This document shows, one piece after another, positions 3,987-36,905 of a stretch of 64,000 bases of DNA. Below the pieces are notes generated by a model. The model did not search any database. It was given only the letters and a program-made list of their open reading frames with translations, and was not told where the DNA came from. The translations under genes and the position numbers were made by a program. How positions within the stretch are numbered: position 1 is the stretch's first letter; each line of letters opens with the position of its first letter. Source of the stretch: a phage. Location: the NCBI GenBank assembly GCA_025812035.1, contig GCA_025812035.1_4719.1, one strand, 5' to 3'.

Positions 3987-6893
3987 ATGAACGATATAAA
4001 TAAAGGGCGCGTCGCCCTCGAACGTCAAATGAGCAATAATGACGTTGCGAAGGCACTCATGAACAAATTTGTCGCTCCTGCCCCGCAGTCACGTCTTTAT
4101 AATACACGTGAGGCGGAAGGAGGGAACGGTCGTTTCGGGTTAGTTGTTCCCGACCAGATGACGATGAACACGGTTACGCGTGCGACAGCGACAAACATCG
4201 AGGATAATAAAAACATTCTCGAGTTGTTCCCTGAACTTAAACGCGTGATGCAGATCTATGTTGCCGCGTTGACGAACCCTAACGATCTTAAGACGGTCGA
4301 GATGTTTATCGATAGCGAAGATTTCCCCGGCAGAGTCGCAGAAATCGTTCAGCCGATGATCGATACCATCGACACGCATTTTAAGAATATCTATAAAATA
4401 AAGACGCTTATCCCTCGTATCATCGAAGACGTCTTCTTTATCAAGGGTAGTTATAACTTCGTTGTTCTGCCCGAAAGTACGCTCGATCGTGCTATTAACG
4501 GTAACGGCCAACTGAAACTTGAAGAATACGGATTCAGAGATAACCATTTTGCAAGTTGGGGGCTTTTAGGTAACGATAGTCGCAAGCGTCAAGAAAACCA
4601 ACTGCCCGCGACGGTTTCGATGGAAGATTATTTCTCAGGCGTTAACGAAACCTTATCGTACGATCCGGTTGTTCGTATAGACAGCATTAAGTTTACCAAT
4701 ACCCTGCTTCGTGATAAGGATGGTAAATTCATTGAAGCGAAGATCGATATTCCGGATATGGTTACGGTTGTCGATAACCCGGATATCCTCCGCATGCCCA
4801 TTTTGCATCAGCGTCGAGCAGCGACAGCGGTGCAACGTGCGTTACGTGCAAACACATTAGGAGGTAGTGGTCTGGTAACGCTGTCTGGTGATCCGACTCA
4901 AACCGCAAACCGGCGTGAGCTGACGCAAGAACAGGTTAACGAGATCTGGAATAAACTCAACATCCAGCGTCATACCAAGGTATCTCCCGTTTACGCGTTG
5001 GCAACCCCAGATACGCTTGACCGTCAAAGCGTTGGTCACCCCGGCGTGATGCATGTACCGCCTGAGGCATTAGAACCAGTACATGCGCCAGGTGATCCGG
5101 AGAACCATATCGGGTATTTAGTTCAGTTGGATGAGTTTGGTTATCCGGTGCGTTTGGTTGAAGATGCGGCGTATTACAAGCAGTTGGAAGGTCGGTTGTC
5201 GAAGATCACCGCGGATATCGCAGGTACTTCAAGCAATGGCATGGCGAGCGAGATGATTGGTGCGGCCAAGAACATGGTCCAAGGTACGTCATGTAATCAG
5301 GTAGACATGTCGGCCTTCGTATCATCGTACGAATCACTGATGCAACGCTACATCGTTGAACGTATTGTCAACGGTTATCTAGGTAGTGCAGTGGAGATCG
5401 GTGCGACATCATCGTTTTACCTATCGATGCTTGCTCGTAGTCTCGCCCACAAGCAGACTCGTGTTTTGTTTATTCCTCGAGAGATGGTTACATACATCGC
5501 TTATGAATACAACAAATACGGTATCGGCCGTTCGTTGCTTGAAAGCACGAAGATGATCTCGTCACAACGCGCCATGCTCATGGTTCAGGAACTGATGGCG
5601 AAAATCAAGAGTTCGTTGAACTACACAACGCTAAGTGTAATGCTTGAAGACACCGACAGAAACCCGGTCGATACCGTCGAACAAGCGTTACATAGCTTCG
5701 CTCGTGTTTACCAGTCTGGTTTCCCACTGGGTGAAACTAACCCAATGGATATCATCAATGCGTACGAACGAAGCTCGATTCGATTGAAGGTCGAGGGGAA
5801 TAACCCACGTTTCCCGAAATTGAATACCGATGTTAGCGTCGAGCAGCGTAACTATCAGTCCCCTGATAATGAATTGATGGATCGTTACCGTCGTGACCAT
5901 TTCATGGGTCTGGGTGTTTCTCCAGAGATCGTTGATACTTCTTACCAATCTGAATTCGCAGCTTCTGTGATTACAGCTAACGCGATGCAAGAGAAACAGT
6001 TCACGGTTTGTCGTGAGGTTATCGTGAATGGGTTAACCGATCACATCAAGAAGTACACGGCTTACAGTCCTGTACTGCTGACGTCGCTGCGAAACACGGT
6101 TCGTGCGAACATGTCTAAGCTCTCCCAAGCACAATTGAAGCAGCTTTTTGGTAGCGATTTCGAAAACGGTGTCATTCGTAACGTTAACGCTTACCAGGAG
6201 ATCGATGACCAGTCAGCAACGATGGATCTGGATTACTCTAAACCAGAAGTTCAGGAAGTTATTGCCGATGCTTACGTATCCATGTTCTTAAACAGTCTGC
6301 AGGTACGTTTACCGGATAGCAATGCTCGCCGCCTTGAAGATCAGGTGCGGGAATATAATCAGTACAAGGAAGCGATTACCGCACAACTTGATGATTATTT
6401 AACGCCTGATTACGTTATGGGTCTGGGTGGAGTCGATGAAACAACATTGCAGATGATTCGTGCGTGCATTATCGGTACTGCAATGCGTACTTGGGCAAAA
6501 GAGAACAACTTCAATCAGGAGTTAGCGGATCTCTTCAGTCTCGATGATAAGAAGAATGCCGTGCAAGATTGGAAACGTGCATCCATGGAACATATCGAAA
6601 TCATGGGTAAATGCATGGGTGATTTTGCACTGTATATTCAGAATCTGACGAAGAAGATTGAAGAGAAGATGGGAGATCAAGCGCAGGACGGTAGCGTTTC
6701 ATCTGATGGCTCTTGGTCGTCTGATTCAAGTAGCGATACAGGTTCTTCTGATGACTTCGGTGGTGATGATTTCGGGGATACCGATTTCGATACCGAAACG
6801 GTGGAGGAAACCTCAACAGAGGAGACAACTACGTCTGAGGATACGACTACCGACACAACGTCGGAAGACGAGACTTCAGGTGATATTGTCTAA
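3987..6893 (+). CDS. hypothetical large protein (968 aa) with acidic Ser/Thr/Asp/Glu-rich C-terminal tail
   Basis: ORF track; AAGGAG SD 9 nt upstream of ATG; last ~75 residues are low-complexity (SSDGSWSSDSSSDTGSSDDFGGDDFGDTDFDTETVEETSTEETTTSEDTTTDTTSEDETSGD). Confidence 0.65.
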   Translation: MNDINKGRVALERQMSNNDVAKALMNKFVAPAPQSRLYNTREAEGGNGRFGLVVPDQMTMNTVTRATATNIEDNKNILELFPELKRVMQIYVAALTNPNDLKTVEMFIDSEDFPGRVAEIVQPMIDTIDTHFKNIYKIKTLIPRIIEDVFFIKGSYNFVVLPESTLDRAINGNGQLKLEEYGFRDNHFASWGLLGNDSRKRQENQLPATVSMEDYFSGVNETLSYDPVVRIDSIKFTNTLLRDKDGKFIEAKIDIPDMVTVVDNPDILRMPILHQRRAATAVQRALRANTLGGSGLVTLSGDPTQTANRRELTQEQVNEIWNKLNIQRHTKVSPVYALATPDTLDRQSVGHPGVMHVPPEALEPVHAPGDPENHIGYLVQLDEFGYPVRLVEDAAYYKQLEGRLSKITADIAGTSSNGMASEMIGAAKNMVQGTSCNQVDMSAFVSSYESLMQRYIVERIVNGYLGSAVEIGATSSFYLSMLARSLAHKQTRVLFIPREMVTYIAYEYNKYGIGRSLLESTKMISSQRAMLMVQELMAKIKSSLNYTTLSVMLEDTDRNPVDTVEQALHSFARVYQSGFPLGETNPMDIINAYERSSIRLKVEGNNPRFPKLNTDVSVEQRNYQSPDNELMDRYRRDHFMGLGVSPEIVDTSYQSEFAASVITANAMQEKQFTVCREVIVNGLTDHIKKYTAYSPVLLTSLRNTVRANMSKLSQAQLKQLFGSDFENGVIRNVNAYQEIDDQSATMDLDYSKPEVQEVIADAYVSMFLNSLQVRLPDSNARRLEDQVREYNQYKEAITAQLDDYLTPDYVMGLGGVDETTLQMIRACIIGTAMRTWAKENNFNQELADLFSLDDKKNAVQDWKRASMEHIEIMGKCMGDFALYIQNLTKKIEEKMGDQAQDGSVSSDGSWSSDSSSDTGSSDDFGGDDFGDTDFDTETVEETSTEETTTSEDTTTDTTSEDETSGDIV

Positions 6894-6923
6894 ACGGATG
6901 TAAAAAAAATAACACATAGTTAA

Positions 6924-6958
6924 CCTTCTCCCCAACCCGATGAGGGAAGGGGAGAAGG
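6924..6958. terminator. bidirectional hairpin between convergent genes
   Basis: Perfect 10-bp stem CCTTCTCCCC/GGGGAGAAGG around inner CCC-GATGA-GGG; A8 tract upstream and T-rich downstream on plus. Confidence 0.6.
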
Positions 6959-6975
6959 GCTATGCGCTATTTAAT

Positions 6976-7251
6976 TTATTTCGAGGTTAACCACGATTCA
7001 ATTGCGGTGAGGTTGCATTTCAGTTCACGCCAACTAGGGTGTGGTGGGATCACAGCACCTTTGTCGATTATGGTTAGCTGAACCTGGTACTTCTGTTGCA
7101 TACGCGCTACCGTATCGCTTGCCGAGAGGAAAAGCTGGTAACGTTCGTACGCCGTCAGTTCGCGGTCCTGATAAACCGCGTAGGTGGCTAACGTAACTTC
7201 GCGTAAGTCCTTTGCGTCCACAGAGACGGTGATGAGTTTATATTGACTCAT
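6976..7251 (-). CDS. hypothetical small protein (~91 aa)
   Basis: ORF track 6976..7281; internal ATG at 7249-7251 has AAGGAAA SD, first ATG does not. Confidence 0.5.
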   Translation of the reverse strand: MSQYKLITVSVDAKDLREVTLATYAVYQDRELTAYERYQLFLSASDTVARMQQKYQVQLTIIDKGAVIPPHPSWRELKCNLTAIESWLTSK

Positions 7252-7313
7252 ACGGTTTCCTTTGCAACTAGGGTATTGCAAACGACAATACCCATCATCG
7301 GATGATAACTTAA

Positions 7314-9857
7314 TTACTGCTCTTCACGTTCCAACAGATACTCGGAAGCGGTAATACCATTTACCGTACGTACTGCTTTCAGACGAGTATCATCGTTCAG
7401 AATCACGGTAACAGACTGTAGACCTTTTACTTTGGTCTCGAAGGTCTTGAACACCTGATCCAGCATACGAGCAATGCTTGGGTTGGTTGCAGCTGACGCG
7501 TGAGTGTAACCGCTCTGGTTCAGATTCAGAATCTTGGCATTGGTCGGTACGCGAACAACAACATGCGGACGCATAGCGAACACGCTGTGATTGAACCAGT
7601 AAGCATCGTTGCTGTCTTCGTCAGTGACGATGTCTGGATTAACACGCATATCCTCAACAGCCGCATCAGCCAAACGACGTTCGATTTCGTCAGCGTCCAG
7701 AGAGCCATCTTTCTCCAGTTCTGCACGATACTCACTCATGGCAACCAAATGACGTTCACGATTCACCGTAGATTTTTCGTGAGCGACTTTCAGGTAGTCA
7801 TGCATGTTGTACAGTTCTGCCATAGACAGACGAATGTTCCACTGACCATCACCGTCACGGTTGCAGTAGAGACACTTCAGCATGTTGACCCAGGTATGGT
7901 AGCAATTGGAGAACTCATCTTCAATAAACTTCTGATCCATTTTAAGATCGTGAATCAGCCAGCCGGACAGTTCTCCGATATCATCAACGAAGCTAGAGAT
8001 GGTGGTTTCAGAGAAGTCCTTCGGTACGATACGTTTGATCAACTTGTTGACGTCTTTGGTCATGCTATCGTTCAGGAAATGCCAAATACGCAGAGGAATG
8101 ACATCTCGATACTGTTGCATGATCTGACGATAAGCCGCAATATCGTCGCTACGACCTTTATCAATAGACAACGCATCCAGGAATTCATGGATAGCATCCA
8201 GCTCTTTGTCGGTATAAGTTCCCAGATAGGAATTGACCGTGGCAAGGAATGCTAATGCGTCGTTTTGGTTGACGTCGGTGTTGGTCTGCTGGATGATCGC
8301 CACAGCAGCTTTGGTTTCAGCATCCTCAACGCTCGATGCTGCGATCGCATCGGTAACGGTAAACAGTTTCATTTCGCGTTGTTCGCCGACAACGATTGGT
8401 TCACGTTGAACCGGTTTGTTGAGGCTAACGCGGACAACCTCCGATTGCGCGATGCGGTCCAGTTTTATCATTTCCTGCTCTGCCATACGACGAGCGGTTG
8501 GATCTGATTCAAGTTCGATGTATTCCACTTCTTCCTCCGTGAGGGATGTAATGTCAACAATGGTTTCATGAAGAATTCCGTTTTCGTCGATACGTGCTCG
8601 ACGAGCGAAGTGCCTGAAGTCATACAACGTTGGCCAGCGACAATTAGGTGCGTAGTCTTTGGCCTTCAGACGCATCTGCATAAATTCTTCATGTTGAACA
8701 ACACGACCGTAACGCTTAGCATCTTCGGTCGCATCAATGGGATTAACGGTCTTTGTTGCCGTAGCGGAACGAACCGTACGGATGGGTTCCGGTTTAGTCT
8801 GCACAGGTTCAGGTTGAACAGGTTTCTGCTGTCCAGACTTAACATGCCATTCGGGTTCTTCGTACCGTTCAGCGAACTGTTCGGCTGCTGCAAAGATATC
8901 GTTGATACCACCGACGTCTCCTTCGGGATTCGTCGAGTAGATACGTGGTTGTGGTGCCTCGTAACGCGGCGCTGTGGTAGCAGGTGCATCATCAACGATA
9001 GGATCATCACCAACATCATACAAACGGTTGAACGCACAATCCTTCGAATCAATGTACGATGGAGCTTGTGGTTGAACAACCGTCGGTCGAGGTTGTGCGC
9101 CGTATCCTGGCATCGTTGGAGCCATACCACGCATAACCGCTGGACTCGGTTGGTATTGCGGTTGCGGATAGGTTCCATATGCAGGTTGCTGCGGTTGACC
9201 GTACCCGGTGCTGGCCATCGCATTTGCTTGTGGTCCGCGATACGTCATTCCCATCTGCATCACCTGTTGCTTCAAACCACGCGATTTTTGCGCGATTTGC
9301 GCCAGGCTCCCGTTTTTATTGAGCTGTGTATACTTATTCGCGGCTTCCGGGTTAACGCGTGATAACTCAATCGCACGATAATACTCCGGGTATTGATTAG
9401 GTTCAAAGAGCCACGTTACAAGATGATACAGCGCAACCGTGCTCACGGCAGCAGTGACGATCTGGTCGGTGGACGCATTCTGCGGCATCGGGTTGATGTA
9501 AGAGAATACGTTCCAGCAGCAATCTTCAACAAGCGATTCCATCATCATATCGCTATTGGTATAACGCGCGACGAAATCGGTTTGTATCTTATCTTGCTGT
9601 GCGAAGTCTTTCAAGACGTTAAAGATAGCCTGACGGATTTTGACGATCGTTGCTTCTTGGGTGATGAAGTTATAGTTCTGCTGATACGCCGGTTGCTGGT
9701 ATTGTGGTGGTTGATAGGTGTTATTCGGGTATGGGTTGTACGGCGGTTGCTGGTATTGTTGCTGACGTACCTGCTCCGCGGCATAATTAATCGTGCTCGC
9801 ATAAGGGTTTTCGCTATAGCCCATTTGCTGGTACATGTTGTTACTACCATTATACAT
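7314..9857 (-). CDS. hypothetical protein (847 aa) with Gln/Tyr/Pro/Asn-rich low-complexity regions
   Basis: ORF track; AAAGGAT SD; N-terminal ~70 aa (MYNGSNNMYQQMGYSENPY...QQQYQQPPYNPYPNNTYQPPQYQQPAYQQNYNF) and internal GYGQPQQPAYGTYPQPQYQPSP segment. Confidence 0.65.
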   Translation of the reverse strand: MYNGSNNMYQQMGYSENPYASTINYAAEQVRQQQYQQPPYNPYPNNTYQPPQYQQPAYQQNYNFITQEATIVKIRQAIFNVLKDFAQQDKIQTDFVARYTNSDMMMESLVEDCCWNVFSYINPMPQNASTDQIVTAAVSTVALYHLVTWLFEPNQYPEYYRAIELSRVNPEAANKYTQLNKNGSLAQIAQKSRGLKQQVMQMGMTYRGPQANAMASTGYGQPQQPAYGTYPQPQYQPSPAVMRGMAPTMPGYGAQPRPTVVQPQAPSYIDSKDCAFNRLYDVGDDPIVDDAPATTAPRYEAPQPRIYSTNPEGDVGGINDIFAAAEQFAERYEEPEWHVKSGQQKPVQPEPVQTKPEPIRTVRSATATKTVNPIDATEDAKRYGRVVQHEEFMQMRLKAKDYAPNCRWPTLYDFRHFARRARIDENGILHETIVDITSLTEEEVEYIELESDPTARRMAEQEMIKLDRIAQSEVVRVSLNKPVQREPIVVGEQREMKLFTVTDAIAASSVEDAETKAAVAIIQQTNTDVNQNDALAFLATVNSYLGTYTDKELDAIHEFLDALSIDKGRSDDIAAYRQIMQQYRDVIPLRIWHFLNDSMTKDVNKLIKRIVPKDFSETTISSFVDDIGELSGWLIHDLKMDQKFIEDEFSNCYHTWVNMLKCLYCNRDGDGQWNIRLSMAELYNMHDYLKVAHEKSTVNRERHLVAMSEYRAELEKDGSLDADEIERRLADAAVEDMRVNPDIVTDEDSNDAYWFNHSVFAMRPHVVVRVPTNAKILNLNQSGYTHASAATNPSIARMLDQVFKTFETKVKGLQSVTVILNDDTRLKAVRTVNGITASEYLLEREEQ

Positions 9858-9891
9858 TTCTTACGATCCTTTTTATTTATTCGGTTATGTG

Positions 9892-11688
9892 TCAATCGAT
9901 TATGTCACGATCGTTAATTTCTACAATTTCTTCATCGAATCGACCGACGTCTTTCTTCAAGCCTGCATTTGTTGCTGCAACGTCATTTGCAATTTGTGGG
10001 GTAACGATTAACCGACCACGCTCGTCGATAGGTGCGTACATACTGAACTTCTGACGTCCGGTTGGTTCGGAGTGTGGAAGATTCAGATAGCTCGCACAGA
10101 ACGGGATGGAACCACTAACCAAACGACTCTCGTCAGCCAACGCAGCACCGCCTGCGTTTTGGCTCTGGAGAACAACATGCGTGCTCACTTTGAACAGCAT
10201 GCAATCACCCGGTGACTGAATCGATGTTGCCACTTTCTCACGCTTATCACGATTGCTCTGGATATTGAGAATCGCTTCTGTTGCAACTTGATTTCGCAAC
10301 GCCTTCTGTACATCGCGATTGGTCATCTCTTTACGGTTGTTCTGTCGTTTACCACGTTCTGTGGTTTTAAGATGGAACCCCAGTTTAAAGATGCTCTTAC
10401 GCACATCCTCCATGACATATTCCAACACCATCAATTCCTTACCGAACATCGTCGTGGTATCAACACGACTCATTTCGATAGTAACATTGTCAATCAGATA
10501 CGCCATAAATTCGTAGAAGTCATCGCAAGGAATATTTTCCTGTTTGAACTTCTTCTGCTGAATTTCGTCGACGTAAAGATCAAGGCTATCGATGTGGTGG
10601 TTTACATCACGCAACAAACGCGCATCCGCGTTGTTGTTATTAAAGATAATCAAACCGAGTAATGTACGCCAATGGTCTGGCGCATTAGCGAACTCTTCAA
10701 CCGGATAGTCTTCCGGAAAACGATCGTAATAGCGGTCGATGAGATACAAGAACGCACCGACAAGGCCAAGAACAATACGTTCCGTGCCTCCACGTCTTAC
10801 AGCAATTTGAATATCAGGATGTTTATAACGTACAGCGTTAGCGCTACGGCTTTTACCGCTCTTACTAATACTAAAGCCTTTAGGAATAACCCCCATGGTG
10901 CGATAGATTACCCATTGGTCGCGCGGAAAATCGCGTTCAGCAAGATTCCGTCCGGTTACCGCTTCGACACCCGCGAAACGTCGGAAACATTCACCTACCC
11001 CGTACTTCGCAAAGAGATAGTGACCCAATGTGGTTACACTGGTGTGGTTGATGTTGTCACCGTTCACTTTACTTTGTTTGGTAAGATGATAGATTTGCGA
11101 CCAGGGTAACGATAGATAGTGACGATAATCGACACCGGTTGGAGTATCATTACTCAGGAACTGATACGGCGTACGTTTAACTGTGATTTTGTCACGCGGA
11201 AGCATGATGAACGCCATGTCTTTCGTGTAACTGATTACAGGGTCAGCGAGTACCGCACTGAGAATAAAGTTTGCACCACGTAGACGCATTTTACCACCCT
11301 GCCCTACTGCGGGTAATAGGAGAGGGTGTCGGATAATGCAGTAGTCCTTTCCTGGTTCACGACGGTCACCTGATTCCATCGCGCCATACCAGCGGAATTC
11401 TAACATCACCATAAACACATCGGACGGCGCAAGGTCAAAGGTCAGCTTACCGCTATCCTTCCCTTTGGTTTTCTTTCCTCCGCTTAAGTAGTGAAACTGT
11501 TCGCGGGCCACACAACGACGTAGGCCATGATACACCAGATCCTTAGGTAAACTATCTTTGCTGTTCCGCCAAAGACGATCAACATAGGACTCAACATCTT
11601 GCATCTTATCGACGACGATGTTGCGCGCTATCTTCTCGTTCATCTTCGGTGCAAGCCCAGCGACAGCTTTGCAGAATCTAGGATCCAT
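9892..11688 (-). CDS. hypothetical protein (~598 aa)
   Basis: ORF track 9892..11691; ATG at 11686-11688 preceded by AAAGGAG SD; no polymerase or terminase motifs recognised. Confidence 0.6.
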   Translation of the reverse strand: MDPRFCKAVAGLAPKMNEKIARNIVVDKMQDVESYVDRLWRNSKDSLPKDLVYHGLRRCVAREQFHYLSGGKKTKGKDSGKLTFDLAPSDVFMVMLEFRWYGAMESGDRREPGKDYCIIRHPLLLPAVGQGGKMRLRGANFILSAVLADPVISYTKDMAFIMLPRDKITVKRTPYQFLSNDTPTGVDYRHYLSLPWSQIYHLTKQSKVNGDNINHTSVTTLGHYLFAKYGVGECFRRFAGVEAVTGRNLAERDFPRDQWVIYRTMGVIPKGFSISKSGKSRSANAVRYKHPDIQIAVRRGGTERIVLGLVGAFLYLIDRYYDRFPEDYPVEEFANAPDHWRTLLGLIIFNNNNADARLLRDVNHHIDSLDLYVDEIQQKKFKQENIPCDDFYEFMAYLIDNVTIEMSRVDTTTMFGKELMVLEYVMEDVRKSIFKLGFHLKTTERGKRQNNRKEMTNRDVQKALRNQVATEAILNIQSNRDKREKVATSIQSPGDCMLFKVSTHVVLQSQNAGGAALADESRLVSGSIPFCASYLNLPHSEPTGRQKFSMYAPIDERGRLIVTPQIANDVAATNAGLKKDVGRFDEEIVEINDRDIID

Positions 11689-11727
11689 CACACACTCCTT
11701 TCAGAAAGTTGCTTAAGCAGATTAAAG

Positions 11728-13197
11728 TTACTTTTTCGATGAAGCTTTCTCAAGAATCTTGAAAAAGGTCATACCTATACCAACAACGGCCGCGGTTATA
11801 CTCGCAGCGGCTTTCCAGACATCGACGTTACGTTGACGTCGCGCTTCTTCCGCTTCGCGTTGTCTTTTTGCTTCATCATCACGACGGCGTAGCTCAGTTG
11901 TGAATTCATCGTGCTTACGTTTCGCGTCCTCGTCTCGGCGACGCATTTCAGCGATAAGCTCATCATGCTTACGTTTTGCCTCTTCATCACGACGTTTAAG
12001 TTCAGCTTGATGTTCTTCTCGTATTTGTTTACGAAGATCATCTTGACGTTTCATTTCGGCTTGGTGGTGTTCCATCCTACGTTCAGTATCGTCTTTAAGC
12101 TGTTTAACAATTTCCGCATGTTGCTTATTTTGTCGTTCCGCATCGGTTTTATACAATTCGTGTAATTGCTTTATTTCCGATGCGTGAGCGTCAGCCTGTC
12201 GTTTCATTTCGTTGGTATGATCGACCTGCAGTTGCTTTATTTCAGCCATCAGCCCTTTAAGGGTTTCTTCTGTTGACTTACGTTCATAGCTACGTTGGTC
12301 GAAATCATTTTTGTAGGCTTCTTTTTGGATGGGGTCGCGCCAATGCAATGCCGATTCACGTGTCGGAAAAACATTGTACTTCCACATCTCTTTTTCCAAA
12401 TCTTCGACCGGTACGAAGACGGAGTCATTATTCCCGAAGGTAACCAACATACCTGGCGCGCCTGCTCCATTCGTTGGTTTTATTTCGAACGCTTTTCCCA
12501 GAACGTTAACCCATAAGCTATACGGATTATGAAAGTCTGGTGGCGTCCAATGGATAGTGAGTTGCGTTCCGAGAATCCGGAAACCCTCTGTTTTTCCCGT
12601 CAAGCTTCGCGCACACGTTGCGATGTAGGGGTGATCAATCCCTTTCGTAACGTGGTCTGCGCTTTTGTATTCTCCTTTAACTTTTACGACTGCCACGTTG
12701 ATTTGCGCGACATAAATAGGTTGATTAAAGTTCAACGTGTTGAGGTCAATTTGGCATACTTCATCCAGCGTATCGTACCAGTCTTGCTGGTCTAATAGAC
12801 GCGGTATTTTCTCCGTGTTAACGATGCGACGGATATGCGGTTTCCTTATCGCGTAACCTGTGCCGTTTTTAACACGAAGTATATCCCGACGTCTACCCGC
12901 GTAGACGAAGTTTCTGAATGCACCATTCGCATTAGATACGTCATGGCTGTCAACTATTACAGGACTACGAAATTTTGAACGCCTTACGATCCTGAATGTA
13001 TTGCCGTCCTCAACCCTACCAGGAATGTACTGGAACATATTGTCGGAGGTGATAACCAACACGGTATGGTTGGATTCATTAATACACGCCCATCCTAATT
13101 CCAGGTCATATAACGGTTCAGCATAACCGTCAATGCGATATGCGTGCGTACCATCCCACGGTTCGAACGCGGTATCACATATTGGCATGGAGGGCAT
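11728..13197 (-). CDS. hypothetical protein with C-terminal charged coiled-coil repeats and C-terminal transmembrane anchor
   Basis: ORF track 11728..13203 (TTG); ATG at 13195-13197 with GGAGG SD; C-terminal ~150 aa are K/R/E/D-rich heptad-like repeats (ELKRRDEEAKRKHDE / RRRDEDAKRKHDE / RRRDDEAKRQRE) followed by hydrophobic AAASITAAVVGIGMTFFKIL and KK end. Confidence 0.6.
   Translation of the reverse strand: MPSMPICDTAFEPWDGTHAYRIDGYAEPLYDLELGWACINESNHTVLVITSDNMFQYIPGRVEDGNTFRIVRRSKFRSPVIVDSHDVSNANGAFRNFVYAGRRRDILRVKNGTGYAIRKPHIRRIVNTEKIPRLLDQQDWYDTLDEVCQIDLNTLNFNQPIYVAQINVAVVKVKGEYKSADHVTKGIDHPYIATCARSLTGKTEGFRILGTQLTIHWTPPDFHNPYSLWVNVLGKAFEIKPTNGAGAPGMLVTFGNNDSVFVPVEDLEKEMWKYNVFPTRESALHWRDPIQKEAYKNDFDQRSYERKSTEETLKGLMAEIKQLQVDHTNEMKRQADAHASEIKQLHELYKTDAERQNKQHAEIVKQLKDDTERRMEHHQAEMKRQDDLRKQIREEHQAELKRRDEEAKRKHDELIAEMRRRDEDAKRKHDEFTTELRRRDDEAKRQREAEEARRQRNVDVWKAAASITAAVVGIGMTFFKILEKASSKK
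11830..12010 (-). repeat. imperfect tandem DNA repeats (~54-63 bp) encoding the charged coiled-coil repeats
   Basis: Plus-strand units such as TCATCGTGCTTACGTTTCGCGTCCTCGTCTCGGCGACG / TCATCATGCTTACGTTTTGCCTCTTCATCACGACG; in-frame within gene 11728..13197. Confidence 0.5.
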
Positions 13198-13346
13198 CGT
13201 CAACCTCCATCAGATTGAAAACTATCACGCATAATGCATTTCCCTTTTCTTGTTCTTATCGAGCCGACAGCCGACGGTTTCAGCATCGTTCCTAGCGCGA
13301 GAACGACCTTACGTGTTGTCTATGCCTTATTCATCGCAGGCGTCTG

Positions 13347-19683: not shown

Positions 19684-20586
19684 TTACTTAGTCTTCGAGT
19701 TACAAGGACTGACCTGTTGTTGTACTCGTTGAATTGTGTCGTAGTACGGGTTAGATTGGTTGAACATGTTGTTGTGTGGATGATAGCCGTATGGCGCATT
19801 TTGCCTTGTTGATGAGAAACCTTGTTGAGAAGGACGATTTGAATTAACCGCGAGTACGTAGTAAACCAAATTTTGACGGTCGAACGTTCCTTCGTTTTTG
19901 AAGGTGTCGGCGTAGGTGCTTATCGCTGGAGCGAGTCTATCACCATCGGCGGTAATAATTGTACCGTCTGGGTAAACTTCACGAACGACGCACCATGTTC
20001 CGATAAGAACGTCTTTGGGTGGCGTATTGCCGTATCCGGTTGTAACGGTAAGGTAAGTATCGAACCCTTCAGAACAACAAGGATGACGATAGATAGGTCC
20101 TGTCATTTCCGTTCTATCGGTATCATCGCATTTCTCTATTGAGAGCGATGATGTGTCGGTTTTGAAATTGTCAAATTCTTTCTTTAAGTCGATTACAGGT
20201 TCTTTCGTATAGTACTTCTTGATTGCTTTGACGTAAAGATCAGGAACGGTTGTCAGCATTCCGTTATACCTGATTCTCAGGTTTTCGAGTAATCCAAAGA
20301 TACTCGCGCATGCTTGTTCGCGAGGTTTTGTAAGATAAGAGATCCCCCCAGGAACGCTGGGATCTTTGAGAAAGAAGATTGCGTTATTGTCGTTGTGTGG
20401 TGCATTGAAGAAAACGATTGATTCGATATATACGGAGCATAGGCTGTCGTTGGCGTCGTCAGATAACACCCAGATGCACTCATCGGTCGTCTTGTTTAAA
20501 AGTTCTGTTTTGTCCACCAAACGTTGTTTCATTGCGAGGAAATGTGCCTGTTGTTCAGCGGATAATTCACGATAAATAGTGGTCAT
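19684..20586 (-). CDS. hypothetical protein, paralog A of a tandem pair (~300 aa)
   Basis: ORF track 19684..20664; ATG 20584-20586 with AAGGAG SD; shares IYRHPCCSEGFDTYLTVTTGY...REVYPDGTI core with the next gene. Confidence 0.6.
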   Translation of the reverse strand: MTTIYRELSAEQQAHFLAMKQRLVDKTELLNKTTDECIWVLSDDANDSLCSVYIESIVFFNAPHNDNNAIFFLKDPSVPGGISYLTKPREQACASIFGLLENLRIRYNGMLTTVPDLYVKAIKKYYTKEPVIDLKKEFDNFKTDTSSLSIEKCDDTDRTEMTGPIYRHPCCSEGFDTYLTVTTGYGNTPPKDVLIGTWCVVREVYPDGTIITADGDRLAPAISTYADTFKNEGTFDRQNLVYYVLAVNSNRPSQQGFSSTRQNAPYGYHPHNNMFNQSNPYYDTIQRVQQQVSPCNSKTK

Positions 20587-20671
20587 ACTCGGCTCCTTGA
20601 TTACGATAAGGATGATTGCGGTTTTGTGATGCTGGTAGGGCCCTAAACAAAGGAGCCCTACCAATATTGGG

Positions 20672-26906: not shown

Positions 26907-29900
26907 TTACTTGTAGGCACCGCAATGTGCTTTGATGAGGAAAAGCACCGCTTGCATCGGCTTATTGAACTGCTGCCATAACGTCAATGCAGGATGGAAC
27001 AACCAATCTTCCAGGCCAAGAACAATACCATAGTTAACGACATTATTAACATCGTTCTCAACGTTGAGTTCGCTATCCAGGAATTTATCGATTGAACGCA
27101 GGGTCTGCATGGCGTTGTCAGCGATGAGCCAAGCCTCATGCGCTTCACGAGCCGCACGTAGCAACGCATCCAGCTCGCTGACGCTGGCTACCGGTAATTC
27201 CTCGCTGGTGAGGTCGTCAGAAACCGTGAAGCTGCGGTTGATACCGGTATAGATCCACTGCATCAGTTTCGCTGCTTCCTCGTTCGGGTTGTTACGCGTT
27301 GTCGCATAGGTTGCGCTCACCTTCACGATATGCGTTTCACCGAGATACGCTTTGGAACCAACACCTTTACGATCGCTGTCTTTCCATGGCTGTACGGTAG
27401 CAACCATAAGCTTATCCCATTTCTGGATAGGAATACGCTTCAGACCAACAACCGAGCCAGTGGACGTGTCGGACTGGTTGCTCTTCCGCACTTCGCTGAG
27501 CTCACGATCGATAGCGACGATTAATTCGCGTGCCATGTTACCGAGCATTTTGATTTCACCCAACGCAGCGATGAGTTTCTTCACATCGGTAACAGGCTCA
27601 CCACCGATGGTAAGATGACGGATGAATCGTTTCAGAATAATCCGTTCCGCAGCTGGGTTACCGTGACGCGCTTTAGCTAGTGCTTGCTGTGTTTCGGCGA
27701 ACAGCTTATCCCATGGAGCCGTAGCAGCAGTGTAGTAACGGTGATTGGTTTCGATCCAATTCCCGATACGGTTAACCGCGTTCTTAACGGTATCCATGAA
27801 TCCTTCCATCGCGATTTCGGTAGCTTCAACGTTACCCCGGAAGTTATCAGGACCGATCTCGCGTGCCGCTACCAGAATACCTTCCACCGCACTTACCGCA
27901 TGGCGACCGATAGCCAGATTTCGCTGTGCTTCTTCAGCACGCTCAACGAATTCCACCACAGCCGGATCGTCAACGATTTCCGCTTCGGCAACAGCACGTG
28001 TACCTGCATCGCCTTCCAACGTCTCGATGGTGACAACAGGATCGTTTTCACCAGCAACGTCCTGATACTCTTCCTGTTTGAGATCGCCGTTATCAGCCGC
28101 TGCGACAGCGGTGAGTATACGGACAGTAACATCGCCGAGTTCTTTCGCTGCGAATCCGTAGACGGTGCATGCTGTTGTCGCAAAGTTCATCAGCGTACGT
28201 GTACGTTTAACGATGTAACCAACACCATAATCGCTACCGCTCTTATCGATGTCGCGGATTAACTGTTCAGCCGTCTCCTGAAGTTGAGTAGCTGCTTTCA
28301 GAAGGTTTTCGTCAAACAGTTTCGTTGATGCACTGATCAGCATTTCAACGCTGACATTGGACGGCACAGCATCGTCCTGCTGTTTCATGGCGCTAAGTTC
28401 GTCACGGAACTTACGAATACCGTCTAAAGCGGCATCGGCGTTATGTCCGAATGCGGCTACGCCCGACATTGTTGTTGCTGACAACATATCCGAATCGGCG
28501 TTTGGACTTTCGCCTTCTTTAAGATCCTTCAATTGGTCGAAGAATTTACGGGACGCGTCGGCAATACGTTTACTGTCTTTGACTGCGTTTACGATTTTAT
28601 CGACCGATTTAGCATCGTTCGCAAGCAGCGTATCGAGCTTGTTCCATTCGACGTCGACTTTCTTCGCATCCGCAGTATTACTCGGCGGAGGAAGCAGTTT
28701 CATCACTGGCGTTGTGCGTTGTTCTTTGGTGAGCTTACCAGCCTTCTCATCGATTTTCTTTTTACTAACACCGAAGAGCTTTCTTAGGCGTGCTACGAGG
28801 GCTTTTAAGAACTTCACAACCGCTTCGTAAACCGACTTCAGGATCTGCTTAAAGCGACCTGGCTGTTTTTCCCCGTCTTCCAGATTGAGATCGCTGTTCA
28901 ATGCGATATCAAGCTGTTTGTACGATTCCATGATGTATTCGTCTTTGATTTCAGGACGAATCTCGAAGCTTTCCATCGGACCTTCAGCCGGACGGAATTC
29001 CATTTTCAGTTCGCCTTGCAGGGTAGGGTCGACAATAGCGATAGCTTCGCCCTGGCCATCCGCATTAAAACGTTCAGCGTAACGAGTACGACGAACGATA
29101 ACGCTCTTATCCCCTTCAAAACGACGTACCACCATGGTGCCTGGAATGTACGGTTGTTCTGTTTCGATAACGGTAACGCCTGTTTCACCTTCACCGAGAA
29201 TAACGGAGGCCTGCTGCTCAACAACAGGAACATCTAAAACACCACGTGCTTCCAGCTCTTGACGAATTTCGAACGACTCTTGTTTCAGATCTTCATCTTC
29301 TTCGTTTTCGTCGTCTTCATCGTCGTCACCTTCGGTGTTTTCATTACCCTCGGTGGTTGTGGTGTCTGTGTTGGTAGGTTCTTCGGACGCAGGTTCGGTG
29401 GTGCTGTCTTCGGCAGGCGTTTCGTCAGCGTTATCGACGTCAACATCACCTTGCAGCTCCGTTTCTTGAGCAACTGCTTCGGCTTTCTGCTCGCCGGTAT
29501 TGCCGTCATTAGCGTCAACAACCGGTTGTTCGTCAGCGACGGTATCTTCAACCTTTTCTACTTTCTCCACGACGCGTTTAATCACGGTGACTTTGATGGG
29601 TTCTTCCGTCGTTTTGGTTTCTGGTGTTACATCGGCTGCCGTGGCTGTTGTTTCAGCTGCAGGTTCTTCTTTTTCCGGTTCGACGACATTACCTTTAACC
29701 CCTTGGGTGGTTTCTGCCGGTTGCGCAGCCTGTTCGATTTGTGCCGGGTTGGTTGGATCGATGGCGTTAGCCGCATCCTGAATCTTGTTCTTCAGGTTGT
29801 CGCGGTCAGCGCTGATGGTCGGGTCATTGGTCACTTTCGGTGCCGGTGTTTCGGTCGGTGCGTTTGCCGGATACGGGTTCTTCGGTTCTTCGCCTGGTGC

Positions 29901-30272
29901 GGTCGGTACCGCGATCAGAACGAACGGCTGAACATCGTTACCGTCTTCCATGGTTACACCGCCGTTACTTGGTGTGAAACGAATGCGCAAACTCCCATCA
30001 ATAGGACGGGTTACAATAACAGCACGTACGACGTCTTCACCGTTCTCATCCGTGCTACGAATCACACGAACGGCATCATCAACGGTGGTCCCTTCCTCGA
30101 GCGTATCTGATTCGATCGTCGCTTCGATGCTGTCTGGCCGTGCCGCGGTAGGTAACGCGATCACTTGCTCTTCTTTATCGGTAGAAAGCGTTGCTTTGAC
30201 TTCGATAGGGGTATCGCCGCTTTCCAGGTTAAGATGCGACTTACGCATCAGATCAGCTAACGATTTTTTCAT
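26907..30272 (-). CDS. large virion-type protein (1121 aa) with internal acidic Thr/Glu/Asp-rich linker; member of the EGF-helix paralog family
   Basis: ORF track; AAGAGGAA SD; ~120-aa low-complexity acidic segment (…TEPASEEPTNTDTTTTEGNENTEGDDDEDDENEEDEDLK…); core ESFEIRPEIKDEYIMESYKQLDIAL…VYEAVVKFLKALVARLRKLFG resembles the paralogs at 30.3-36.9 kb. Confidence 0.6.
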   Translation of the reverse strand: MKKSLADLMRKSHLNLESGDTPIEVKATLSTDKEEQVIALPTAARPDSIEATIESDTLEEGTTVDDAVRVIRSTDENGEDVVRAVIVTRPIDGSLRIRFTPSNGGVTMEDGNDVQPFVLIAVPTAPGEEPKNPYPANAPTETPAPKVTNDPTISADRDNLKNKIQDAANAIDPTNPAQIEQAAQPAETTQGVKGNVVEPEKEEPAAETTATAADVTPETKTTEEPIKVTVIKRVVEKVEKVEDTVADEQPVVDANDGNTGEQKAEAVAQETELQGDVDVDNADETPAEDSTTEPASEEPTNTDTTTTEGNENTEGDDDEDDENEEDEDLKQESFEIRQELEARGVLDVPVVEQQASVILGEGETGVTVIETEQPYIPGTMVVRRFEGDKSVIVRRTRYAERFNADGQGEAIAIVDPTLQGELKMEFRPAEGPMESFEIRPEIKDEYIMESYKQLDIALNSDLNLEDGEKQPGRFKQILKSVYEAVVKFLKALVARLRKLFGVSKKKIDEKAGKLTKEQRTTPVMKLLPPPSNTADAKKVDVEWNKLDTLLANDAKSVDKIVNAVKDSKRIADASRKFFDQLKDLKEGESPNADSDMLSATTMSGVAAFGHNADAALDGIRKFRDELSAMKQQDDAVPSNVSVEMLISASTKLFDENLLKAATQLQETAEQLIRDIDKSGSDYGVGYIVKRTRTLMNFATTACTVYGFAAKELGDVTVRILTAVAAADNGDLKQEEYQDVAGENDPVVTIETLEGDAGTRAVAEAEIVDDPAVVEFVERAEEAQRNLAIGRHAVSAVEGILVAAREIGPDNFRGNVEATEIAMEGFMDTVKNAVNRIGNWIETNHRYYTAATAPWDKLFAETQQALAKARHGNPAAERIILKRFIRHLTIGGEPVTDVKKLIAALGEIKMLGNMARELIVAIDRELSEVRKSNQSDTSTGSVVGLKRIPIQKWDKLMVATVQPWKDSDRKGVGSKAYLGETHIVKVSATYATTRNNPNEEAAKLMQWIYTGINRSFTVSDDLTSEELPVASVSELDALLRAAREAHEAWLIADNAMQTLRSIDKFLDSELNVENDVNNVVNYGIVLGLEDWLFHPALTLWQQFNKPMQAVLFLIKAHCGAYK

Positions 30273-35576: not shown

Positions 35577-36905
35577 TTATTGCTGTGCTGCGTCAGCCGG
35601 TTTCTCAGCCGCCTGGCCGCCGTACTCTTTCAGCATTTTAGCAGCGCCATCCAGTACAGCATTACCTGCCTGAACACCGTACTTCATCAGGCCGGTCTGC
35701 GGATTCACGTAGCAGGAACGTGCGTCTTTCAGAGCAGACAGTACAGCTTGAACACGCTGTTTTTCCTGAGCGGAAACTTCGCCTTTCTTAGACAGATCAG
35801 CTTCCATATCGTCGCCGAATTTAACAGCGTCTTTGAAGCCCTGGGATTTCTTACCGATGTTGCCTTTCAGCGCCAGCAGTTTGTCAGCCAGTACTTCAAC
35901 ACTGCTAACTGCGGCAGCCAGCTGATTCAGAGACAGTACAGTTGCTTCAACTTCTTTCGCTTCACCGGAACGTTCCCAGGTTACTTTACCGTCGTTGGTT
36001 TTGAAACCCCAACCCGCCGGGCCAGCAACGTCAGCAATCGCCGGTGCGTTCAGTTTATCTGCGTACTCGGTGTGGGACTTAGCAACAACGGTGTTGACGA
36101 ATTTATCAGCACGGTCGTCAGCAGCCTTCATTGCTTTCTCGAAGGTGTCAGCGATTTTAGTTGCACCGGTAACCAGATCGTCACCGCCGATATAACCTGA
36201 AACGCCGCTACCCAGTTTAACTTTGGCATTTTTAGCAGCGCCTTTACGTTTGGCGATCATTTCTTTCAGTTTAGCGGCACGTGCTTTCAGTTTGGTTGCG
36301 CCGTCGAAGATACGATCCATGAACTTCACGAAGGTTTCCCAGGAAGTTTTCAGGAAGTTCTTGATGGTTGCCCACAGTTTCTGCCACCATTTTTGTTCTT
36401 CCAGGAAGATCATGTTGGTTGCATCGTAACGGGAAGCGGAGCCACCGAAGCTTTCGAAGGACGGCATGGTTTCCGGCAGTTTGAAACCGATAGTACCACA
36501 CAGGCGTTTCAGGTTACGCATGTGTTCCTGAGCGGTTTGTGCAGACATACCACCGTCTTTCAGGTAGCTTTCGGTTGCAACAACGGTTTCCGTCAGTTCG
36601 TCCATGGCTTCGTCCATGGCTTCTGCGGTTTCGTCGTCTTTTGCAATTTCGATAACAACAGCATCAACCTGCTCGATATCGCCACGAACTTCGATAGCCA
36701 GTTCGGTTTCAGCTGCGGTATCTTCAGCGATTTCAGCGCGTTCGGTCAGTTCAGCTACAACGGTTTCATCATCTGCTGCTGCTGCGGCATCAGCTGCCGG
36801 TTCTGCTTCAACGGTTGCCGCTGCATCCGGATCGATCTCAGCAGCCAGTTGAACCAGCTGTGCGTTAGATGGATTTGCGACAAGACGATCAAAAATAGAA
36901 GGCAT
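35577..36905 (-). CDS. paralogous virion protein 5 (442 aa), very highly expressed by codon usage, Ala/Glu-rich N-terminal region
   Basis: ORF track; AAAGGAAA SD; codon bias like the capsid candidate; core ESFGGSASRY…WWQKLWATIKNFLKTSWETFVKFMDRIF. Confidence 0.65.
   Translation of the reverse strand: MPSIFDRLVANPSNAQLVQLAAEIDPDAAATVEAEPAADAAAAADDETVVAELTERAEIAEDTAAETELAIEVRGDIEQVDAVVIEIAKDDETAEAMDEAMDELTETVVATESYLKDGGMSAQTAQEHMRNLKRLCGTIGFKLPETMPSFESFGGSASRYDATNMIFLEEQKWWQKLWATIKNFLKTSWETFVKFMDRIFDGATKLKARAAKLKEMIAKRKGAAKNAKVKLGSGVSGYIGGDDLVTGATKIADTFEKAMKAADDRADKFVNTVVAKSHTEYADKLNAPAIADVAGPAGWGFKTNDGKVTWERSGEAKEVEATVLSLNQLAAAVSSVEVLADKLLALKGNIGKKSQGFKDAVKFGDDMEADLSKKGEVSAQEKQRVQAVLSALKDARSCYVNPQTGLMKYGVQAGNAVLDGAAKMLKEYGGQAAEKPADAAQQ

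Follow-up and report, generated by a model that had tools for sequence, protein, structure and literature searches.

Introduction

What a phage gains from two protein stretches built largely of glutamine, tyrosine, proline and asparagine is the question raised by an open reading frame (ORF) of 847 codons, located at 7314-9857 of a 64,000-nucleotide stretch of phage DNA (contig GCA_025812035.1_4719.1, GenBank assembly GCA_025812035.1), hereafter the window. The original prediction, made from the letters of the window alone, took these stretches for prion-like domains of an otherwise globular protein, possibly engaged in condensate formation or in the sequestration of host factors. The ORF and its Q/Y/P/N-rich segments were confirmed by the ORF listing, by composition and by a window-wide scan. 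The prediction was right about the composition and about the division into globular and low-complexity regions, but the identity of the protein had not been recognised. The protein is a divergent JADA of the Goslar lineage, belonging to the family of phiKZ gp124 and Pa36 gp316. The two stretches are its disordered N-terminal tail (residues 1-64) and the first third of the linker characteristic of the family (residues 206-376). The best joint explanation of the data, to which somewhat more belief than doubt is given, is that of a Goslar-lineage JADA whose low-complexity parts would serve as a multivalent self-association module.

The name JADA was given by Muralidharan et al. (Mol Cell 2026; PMC12931631) to Pa36 gp316, an ortholog of phiKZ gp124. 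JADA was described as an essential, early and abundant protein confined to nucleus-forming jumbo phages, the chimalliviruses, and its gene as lying invariantly 3' of that of a non-virion RNA polymerase subunit (PMC12931631). Pa36 gp316 forms a rigid homodimer through its C-terminal domain (C-domain), with a novel fold, solved by cryo-electron microscopy (cryo-EM) at 2.1 Å, and a disordered linker; in Pseudomonas, the C-domain alone is enough for activation of the Avs5 NADase and for toxicity (PMC12931631). The published record already covers the family, including its disordered linker and genomic position, and a 2026 review still lists JADA as a protein without known molecular function (PMC13282480). 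Antisense knock-down of phiKZ124 lowered phage growth and strongly perturbed phage transcription at 30 min, although the same paper classed gene 124 as non-core. The JADA ortholog of phage Churi was detected 15 min post-infection, and JADA appears beside ribosomal proteins and RpoB in TurboID lists. Interest in the protein stems from its being essential, abundant within minutes, sensed by bacterial immunity and confined to nucleus-forming jumbo phages.

Assignment to the JADA family

The ORF showed 91.5 % nucleotide and 94.5 % amino acid identity to Goslar_00038, from the nucleus-forming jumbo phage vB_EcoM_Goslar of Escherichia. The window comes from a Goslar-like chimallivirus, and the 847-residue protein is the ortholog of Goslar gp38. 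Goslar alone was matched when the full-length protein was compared by tblastn with 50,697 phage records; a Pfam scan of the protein gave nothing above threshold, and PHROGs gave no match.

The link to JADA came from profiles and from the predicted fold. When the profiles of the Goslar and phiKZ gp124 groups were aligned by hhalign, the probability was 99.8 % and E 2.4e-28 over 346 columns of the C-domain. A profile composed of the Goslar group and metagenomic intermediates, with phiKZ gp124 left out, retrieved 9rp3_A (Gp316/JADA) from the PDB over nearly its full length by hmmsearch (E 4.2e-48). When the AlphaFold2 model was submitted to Foldseek, 9rp3_A/B were the sole significant solved structures (E 2.2e-10, probability 1.0), with a template modelling (TM) score of 0.48 normalised to the target; the 21 significant matches in BFVD were all uncharacterised, and every named one was from a phage, mostly a jumbo phage.

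Architecture and gene position lead to the same assignment. The AlphaFold2 model consists of an N-terminal domain (N-domain), a disordered linker and a C-domain, which is the three-part architecture of JADA, and the gene lies directly 3' of, and co-directional with, a polymerase beta-subunit gene in a chimallivirus genome. Only 34 nucleotides separate it from the stop codon of the polymerase gene, which belongs to the phiKZ gp123 family and gave tblastn matches in 274 jumbo-phage records. The same order, with a JADA-slot gene after the polymerase subunit, was found in PhiPA3, phiKZ, RSF1, Simmy50, PCH45, a Logan contig and others, and the slot proteins of these five phages (~650-820 residues) all combine a helical N-domain and a C-domain with a stretch of low complexity.

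More distant relatives were recovered with the C-terminal part of the protein. A search of 5.8 billion proteins with the C-terminal half yielded the outgroups P0005 and P0006, at 38-39 % identity and from contigs with the same gene order. A HMMER profile of the C-domain gave 12 matches among 1.84 billion representatives, nine of which were proteins of 665-947 residues with the same layout, and a 13-sequence C-domain profile added three RSF1-like proteins. A word-indexed search with the full-length protein returned just four near-identical proteins, an outcome probably due to crowding of the candidate list by Q/P-rich words.

Compared with phiKZ gp124 and Pa36 gp316, the Goslar-lineage protein occupies the same slot, follows the same three-part plan, has a homologous C-domain and is likewise restricted to chimalliviruses. 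It differs from phiKZ gp124 in sequence (~13-17 % identity) and length (847 against 721 residues), and from the phiKZ type in its linker (Q/P/Y-rich instead of G/M/P/Q-rich) and in an extra charged helical insertion of ~80 residues in the C-domain; its Q/Y/N/P tail has 64 residues, against 4-47 in other JADA members. Essentiality, timing, dimer formation, foci at the early phage infection (EPI) vesicle and Avs5 activation are results obtained with phiKZ-type JADA, whereas the Goslar lineage is known from sequence, predicted structure and peptides. In the JADA paper Goslar is named solely for a staining method (PMC12931631).

The peptides were found by mass spectrometry of CsCl-purified Goslar virions, in which HOV27_gp038 (97 kDa) was represented by 26 peptides, 28 % coverage and ~17-39 copy-equivalents. 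Since PhuZ (~170) and chimallin (~126), both non-virion proteins, occur in the same list at higher levels, gp38 in this preparation is probably carry-over of an abundant intracellular protein, which proves its expression and not its packaging.

Judged from the sequences, what appears to be new here is the placement of the Goslar lineage in JADA in spite of an identity of 13-17 %, together with two lineage features, a Sup35-like tail of 64-76 residues and the charged C-domain insertion of ~80 residues. Membership of Goslar gp38 in the JADA family offers an E. coli-based system for studying JADA.

Several JADA-slot genes deserve separate mention. In PhiPA3 (NC_028999, 8649-10770) a +1 frame change within the low-complexity linker divides the JADA gene: the annotated gp140 (261 residues) corresponds to the N-domain, the C-domain is encoded by the unannotated ORF 9190-10740, and gp141, annotated on the other strand, resembles a shadow ORF. 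Either an error of sequencing or a genuine frameshift could account for the frame change. For the syntenic proteins of Vibrio phiKT1019, Salmonella SPFM16 and Erwinia Derbicus no sequence link to the JADA family was found; an 830-residue protein of Vibrio phage 2 TSL-2019, of the same length as the phiKT1019 protein, matches by fold. The slot proteins of Derbicus (5774-7324) and SPFM16 (5643-7313) are mutually homologous (hhalign 99.8 %) and comprise an N-domain and a low-complexity linker, that of Derbicus being formed by four NNPFL repeats in an N/G/S-rich spacer.

Layout and composition of the low-complexity segments

The features of the gene and of its product are collected in Table 1.

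Table 1. Positions of the JADA-family gene, its encoded segments and the adjacent genes in the window
Feature	Position	Strand	Description
ORF, 847 residues and stop	7314..9857	-	ATG at 9857, stop 7314-7316; ORF listing
N-terminal low-complexity tail, residues 1-64	9666..9857	-	Q 22, Y 19, N 16, P 12 %; predicted disordered
N-terminal helical domain, residues 65-205	9243..9665	-	AlphaFold2 pLDDT ~70-80; Q/N-rich (17 %), few charged residues
Linker low-complexity part, residues 206-268	9054..9242	-	P 22, Q 17, A 14, G 12, Y 8 %; GYGQPQQPAY motif; pLDDT <35
Rest of disordered linker, residues 269-376	8730..9053	-	Acidic, Pro-rich, conserved islands; pLDDT <50
Island in linker, residues 313-338, GGINDIFAAAEQFAERYEEPEWH	8844..8921	-	Predicted amphipathic helix, then acidic-aromatic motif
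C-terminal globular domain, residues 377-847	7317..8729	-	Homologous to JADA C-domain, PDB 9RP3
Charged helical insertion in C-domain, residues ~665-745	7623..7865	-	Goslar-clade-specific; absent from other aligned family members
Putative Shine-Dalgarno-like AAGGA	9868..9872	-	10 nucleotides 5' of ATG; direct sequence reading
Upstream co-directional gene, non-virion RNA polymerase beta-like subunit, phiKZ gp123 family	9892..11691	-	phrog_2943, E 1e-119
Portal-like protein	3987..6893	+	

Among all 55 ORFs of the window with at least 150 residues, the most Q/Y/N/P-rich stretch of 60 residues belongs to this ORF (70 %, against 48 % in the next ORF and a background of 17 %; binomial P 2.9e-19). 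No DNA repeat was detected beneath the low-complexity regions by Tandem Repeats Finder. In the tail, charged residues amount to 5 %, two of them among the first 60 residues, and Q+N to 38 %; its 13 aromatic residues (twelve Tyr, one Phe) are separated by 7, 5, 5, 6, 10, 5, 3, 5, 5, 5, 4 and 2 positions, mostly ~5. Residues 206-270 of the linker contain P 20 %, Q 15 %, A 12 %, Y 11 % and G 11 %.

The predicted local distance difference test (pLDDT) of the AlphaFold2 model, a monomer computed with an alignment of 16 sequences, is <50 for residues 1-54 and 208-376 and ~70-86 for a helical domain (residues 56-205) and a larger mixed domain (residues 377-847). In the charge-hydropathy plot, too, both low-complexity segments lie on the side of disordered proteins, and the two measures together support their disorder. 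The assumption that the remainder of the protein is globular holds for 56-205 and 377-847, which were modelled as folded, but the disordered internal region extends over all of 206-376 and not just over ~50 residues.

Residues 269-376 contain invariant columns common to an outgroup of 33 % identity. The island at 313-338 is kept in P0005/P0006 as GLQEVFSIAQQFAEEEEDPRWD, with an AlphaFold2 helix at 319-331, and is a possible short interaction or partner-binding motif. The C-domain insertion is modelled with helices at 686-716 and 722-739. A sub-threshold match to Pfam Cas9_C_2 (residues 726-786; 7500..7680, minus strand; E 0.0015, 18.7 bits against a cut-off of 27), which covers the end of this insertion and the next strand, was dismissed as a chance match.

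Such a composition invites the literal reading that the tail is a prion, forming self-templating cross-beta assemblies like yeast Sup35 N. Like Sup35 N and the low-complexity domain of human FUS, the tail is uncharged and Q/N/Y-rich, with an aromatic residue every few positions. The Jensen-Shannon divergence from Sup35 N amounts to 0.13 and that from the FUS domain to 0.21; the resemblance to Sup35 N is a lead only. Q+N of 38 %, Y of 19 % and almost no charge, combined with low hydropathy and disorder, agree with the amyloid reading. Nevertheless, the tail is not homologous to either protein, is far shorter (64 residues) and has proline in place of the glycine/serine spacer, and its maximum of 27 Q+N per 80 residues (starting at about residue 3) stays below the Michelitsch-Weissman value of 30 per 80. 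Proline, which disfavours cross-beta structure and is strongly prion-inhibiting in PAPA-type scales, makes up 12-14 % of the tail and 20-22 % of the low-complexity part of the linker and is spread throughout. Moreover, an abundant early protein such as JADA, which is essential, must do its work within minutes, and relatives lack this chemistry. A literal prion is held to be very improbable, and the amyloid-prone character assigned to the segments by the original prediction is unlikely in view of their proline (12-22 %) and of the Q+N peak.

Constraint within the Goslar clade

Codon alignments of the window protein with three orthologs (Goslar and two Logan contigs) gave ratios of non-synonymous to synonymous substitution rates (dN/dS) of 0.09-0.18 for the tail, 0.07-0.10 for the low-complexity part of the linker and 0.04-0.17 for the folded domains. 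Both low-complexity segments are translated and under purifying selection on a par with the folded domains. Close orthologs differ by insertions and deletions of Q/P/Y-rich units, 9-13 residues long in the tail. One relative, P0003 (3001-5592 of its contig), is 75-78 % identical to the window protein in the tail and N-domain, with dS >1, and 96.8 % identical in the C-domain, with dS 0.26; this mosaic of a high-dS and a low-dS half implies a recombination breakpoint inside the linker.

These data bear on the main rival explanation, that of a passive tether, in which the segments would be a flexible spacer for the N-domain and would owe their composition to drift and slippage under a weak constraint to stay disordered. 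The insertions and deletions between close orthologs and the breakpoint of P0003 are in its favour, as are the family-wide variation of the linker in composition and length (107-240 residues) and the properties of phiKZ-type JADA, whose linker gives no cryo-EM density and which is simply a dimer in vitro and shows diffuse localisation before infection (PMC12931631). A spacer under weak constraint does not sit well with non-synonymous evolution as slow as that of the folded domains (dN/dS 0.07-0.18), nor with tyrosines that are regularly spaced and almost invariant, and the N-terminal tail joins nothing. The co-variation of the N-domain with the linker, described below, is likewise not predicted for a neutral spacer. 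The tether is considered a possible explanation, though a distinctly less probable one than self-association.

Linker chemistry across the family

A low-complexity linker of 107-240 residues between two folded domains was present in 19/19 aligned family members. Two types were distinguished. The polar type, met in Goslar, phiKZ, Simmy50 and most metagenomic members, consists of Q/N/P/G/A with 6-10 % aromatic and 8-23 % charged residues. The second type is an Arg-rich polyampholyte (R 19-28 %, 42-55 % charged, 2-4 % aromatic) and includes RSF1 (RD/RG), PCH45 (RS/RG/E) and P0013 (RGG/RD), P0012 being intermediate. In the star-like neighbour-joining tree of the C-domain the three Arg-rich members do not cluster, and the C-domain of P0013 is 24-27 % identical to polar members against 13-18 % to RSF1 and PCH45. 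This failure to group suggests that the switch between polar and Arg-rich linkers may have occurred more than once.

The share of charged residues in the N-domain rises and falls with that in the linker (r = 0.94, n = 15, uncorrected for shared ancestry; r = 0.68 within the polar type), whereas their share in the C-domain does not (r = -0.28). An N-terminal low-complexity tail of 10-76 residues was found in polar-type members only and is longest in the Goslar clade (64-76 residues); in the nearest outgroup, P0005/P0006, it has just ~25 residues and is N/G/F-rich. Homologs without the Q/Y-rich regions, which the original prediction listed among its possible refutations, do exist, since P0005/P0006, RSF1, PCH45 and P0013 differ in this respect, but a disordered low-complexity linker is universal. 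As the linkers of RSF1, PCH45 and P0013 are Arg/Asp/Gly/Ser-rich and the outgroup tail is short, the Q/Y/P/N flavour is lineage-specific and dispensable for the family. The supposed rarity of such a composition among phage proteins is just partly true inside this phage family. The alignments point to a further new element, the family-wide pattern of a low-complexity module conserved in presence, switching in chemistry and coupled to the N-domain.

A role in host mimicry or host-factor sequestration, in which the Q/P/G/Y linker would imitate disordered regions of the host such as the linker of the single-stranded DNA-binding protein (SSB) or other Q/P-rich linkers, can be examined against the same data. 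The protein resembles SSB in having a G/Q/P-rich disordered segment with QPQQP-type motifs and an oligomeric core, and differs from it in lacking the OB (oligonucleotide/oligosaccharide-binding) fold and the acidic tip motif. A GQPQQP-type motif is indeed present, and JADA is listed next to ribosomal proteins and RpoB by TurboID. A 2014 affinity-purification study by Van den Bossche is cited as having reportedly found phiKZ gp124 with host DnaX/FtsZ complexes. Bacterial SSB was the second PDB match of the Goslar-group profile, although with E 9.7, and SSB-linker mimicry was rejected as resting on a non-significant and purely compositional match. No specific host motif is conserved, and phages of related enterobacterial hosts have quite different linkers, namely Q/Y/P in Goslar, Q/M/P in Simmy50 and R/S/E in PCH45. 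Host mimicry is accordingly thought improbable.

Self-association as the proposed function

The low-complexity parts would act as a self-association module in the following way. The dimer of the C-domain would display the tail, N-domain and linker as a module in two copies, and the evenly spaced tyrosines, set in an uncharged, polar and proline-rich background, would allow many weak and reversible contacts. Multivalent self-association could then concentrate the protein and its binding partners at the infection site during early gene expression, the infection site being where early transcription and translation would be organised. In the Arg-rich lineages the same end might be reached through charge-driven interactions, perhaps with RNA. 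A dynamic assembly is favoured over amyloid, both by the amount of proline and because the protein would have to act quickly and reversibly. As a sticker-and-spacer arrangement would require, the aromatic residues are evenly spread in a polar, uncharged and disordered spacer, and a role in self-association or compartment formation is, on this analysis, compatible with the known facts on JADA and a reasonable, plausible hypothesis.

Several findings weigh against it. Purified phiKZ-type JADA is a discrete dimer by mass photometry and cryo-EM (PMC12931631), and JADA is diffuse in uninfected cells, forming foci at the EPI vesicle after infection (PMC12931631). The low-complexity parts are dispensable for the known activities of JADA, since the C-domain alone suffices for them, and neither the composition of the linker nor condensates are mentioned in the JADA paper (PMC12931631). 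The chemistry of the linker differs between members of the family, as would also be expected of a mere spacer, and the correlation between N-domain and linker ignores shared ancestry in a tree that is star-like. Aromatic positions are invariant in 11/13 cases in the tail and 7/7 in the low-complexity part of the linker, that is 18/20 in total, against 80/107 for other positions, an excess that is a trend and not significant. A profile of the Goslar group by itself has 9RP3 as its top PDB match at E 0.26, and because this direct match is weak, JADA membership rests on the intermediates, the profile-profile comparison and the fold. The N-domain aligned with that of phiKZ-type JADA over 79 co-linear columns with an hhalign probability of 14 % and E 0.0019, values that do not establish homology of the N-domains.

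Localisation at the EPI vesicle is also the starting point of a barrier reading, in which cohesive aromatic/polar domains similar to FG-nucleoporins would line a pore, either in the EPI vesicle or in the phage nucleus, and control which mRNA or protein passes through it. Regularly spaced aromatics in an uncharged polar spacer are compatible with such a barrier, as are the NNPFL repeats of the syntenic Derbicus protein, four in number in an N/G/S-rich spacer; that protein, however, is not detectably homologous. FG, GLFG and FxFG motifs are absent from both segments, the tail has one Phe against twelve Tyr, and Arg-rich family members are just 2-4 % aromatic. JADA is, furthermore, a soluble dimer in which no membrane- or shell-binding element was identified. 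Of the explanations weighed here the barrier is given the least credit.

Returning to self-association, it is tempting to speculate, with considerable doubt, that JADA in general is the scaffold of a condensate-like hub of early infection at the EPI vesicle. The C-domain dimer would provide valence, the N-domain and linker (with the tail, where present) would provide cohesion, and lineages would repeatedly have changed between two chemistries well known from condensates, a prion-like Tyr/Gln/Asn/Pro type (as in Goslar) and an Arg-rich RGG/RD/RS type (as in RSF1, PCH45 and P0013). Were this true, phase behaviour would be the way in which an essential phage protein acts, with the Goslar protein as the most prion-like form of it found in nature. 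The universal low-complexity region, the purifying selection and the two-flavour switch made together with the N-domain amount to a concrete and testable hypothesis on how the early infection site is organised.

Comparison with ChmC

Within the same phage family the protein may be compared with ChmC (PhiPA3 gp61, phiKZ gp67, Goslar gp176), an RNA-binding protein of Whirly fold with an N/G-rich disordered C-terminal tail. Without this tail ChmC neither forms condensates with RNA in vitro nor localises correctly. Both proteins combine an oligomeric folded core with a polar low-complexity segment, and ChmC appears to be the best precedent for assembly driven by low complexity in these phages. Its fold and gene position are unrelated to those of JADA, and its shorter tail, of 50-70 residues, is rich in N/G instead of Tyr/Pro and precedes an acidic cluster. 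Direct binding of RNA is a known property of ChmC.

Neighbouring genes and other low-complexity proteins of the window

Upstream of the polymerase subunit gene, in the position of phiKZ gp122 (Goslar gp40), a 491-residue protein is encoded at 11728..13203 on the minus strand. It carries a C-terminal charged repeat of the RRRDEDAKRKHDE kind in three copies, followed by a hydrophobic C-terminus resembling a tail anchor; a comparable hydrophobic C-terminus was noted in the syntenic gene of RSF1, PCH45, Simmy50, SPFM16, Derbicus and the P0005 contig. Knock-downs of phiKZ122 and of phiKZ124 each disturbed phage transcription (PMC12571901). As JADA is located at the lipid EPI vesicle and both knock-downs disturb transcription, the gp122-position gene, the polymerase subunit gene and the JADA gene may form one module. 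Scans for sigma-70 promoters and terminators gave no more than the shuffle expectation, which is uninformative for a phage using its own polymerases.

On the 3' side of the JADA gene lies the portal-like gene (phrog_3004), in opposite orientation. The C-terminal acidic Ser/Thr/Asp/Glu tail of its product (residues 927-968, DDFGDTDFDTETVEETSTEETTTSEDTTTDTTSEDETSGD) has the lowest entropy in the window. Strongly acidic low-complexity sequence also occurs in a 1121-residue protein (26907..30272, minus strand), with Glu/Asp/Thr/Asn-rich and Pro/Ala/Thr-rich segments, and in the Ala/Glu/Asp-rich N-terminus of a 442-residue protein (35577..36905, minus strand). The second-highest Q/Y/N/P stretch of the window (48 %) is the C-terminal part, residues 264-326, of a 326-residue ORF at 19684..20664 on the minus strand, and includes the sequence QQGFSSTRQNAPYGYHPHNNMFNQSNPYYDTIQRVQQQ.

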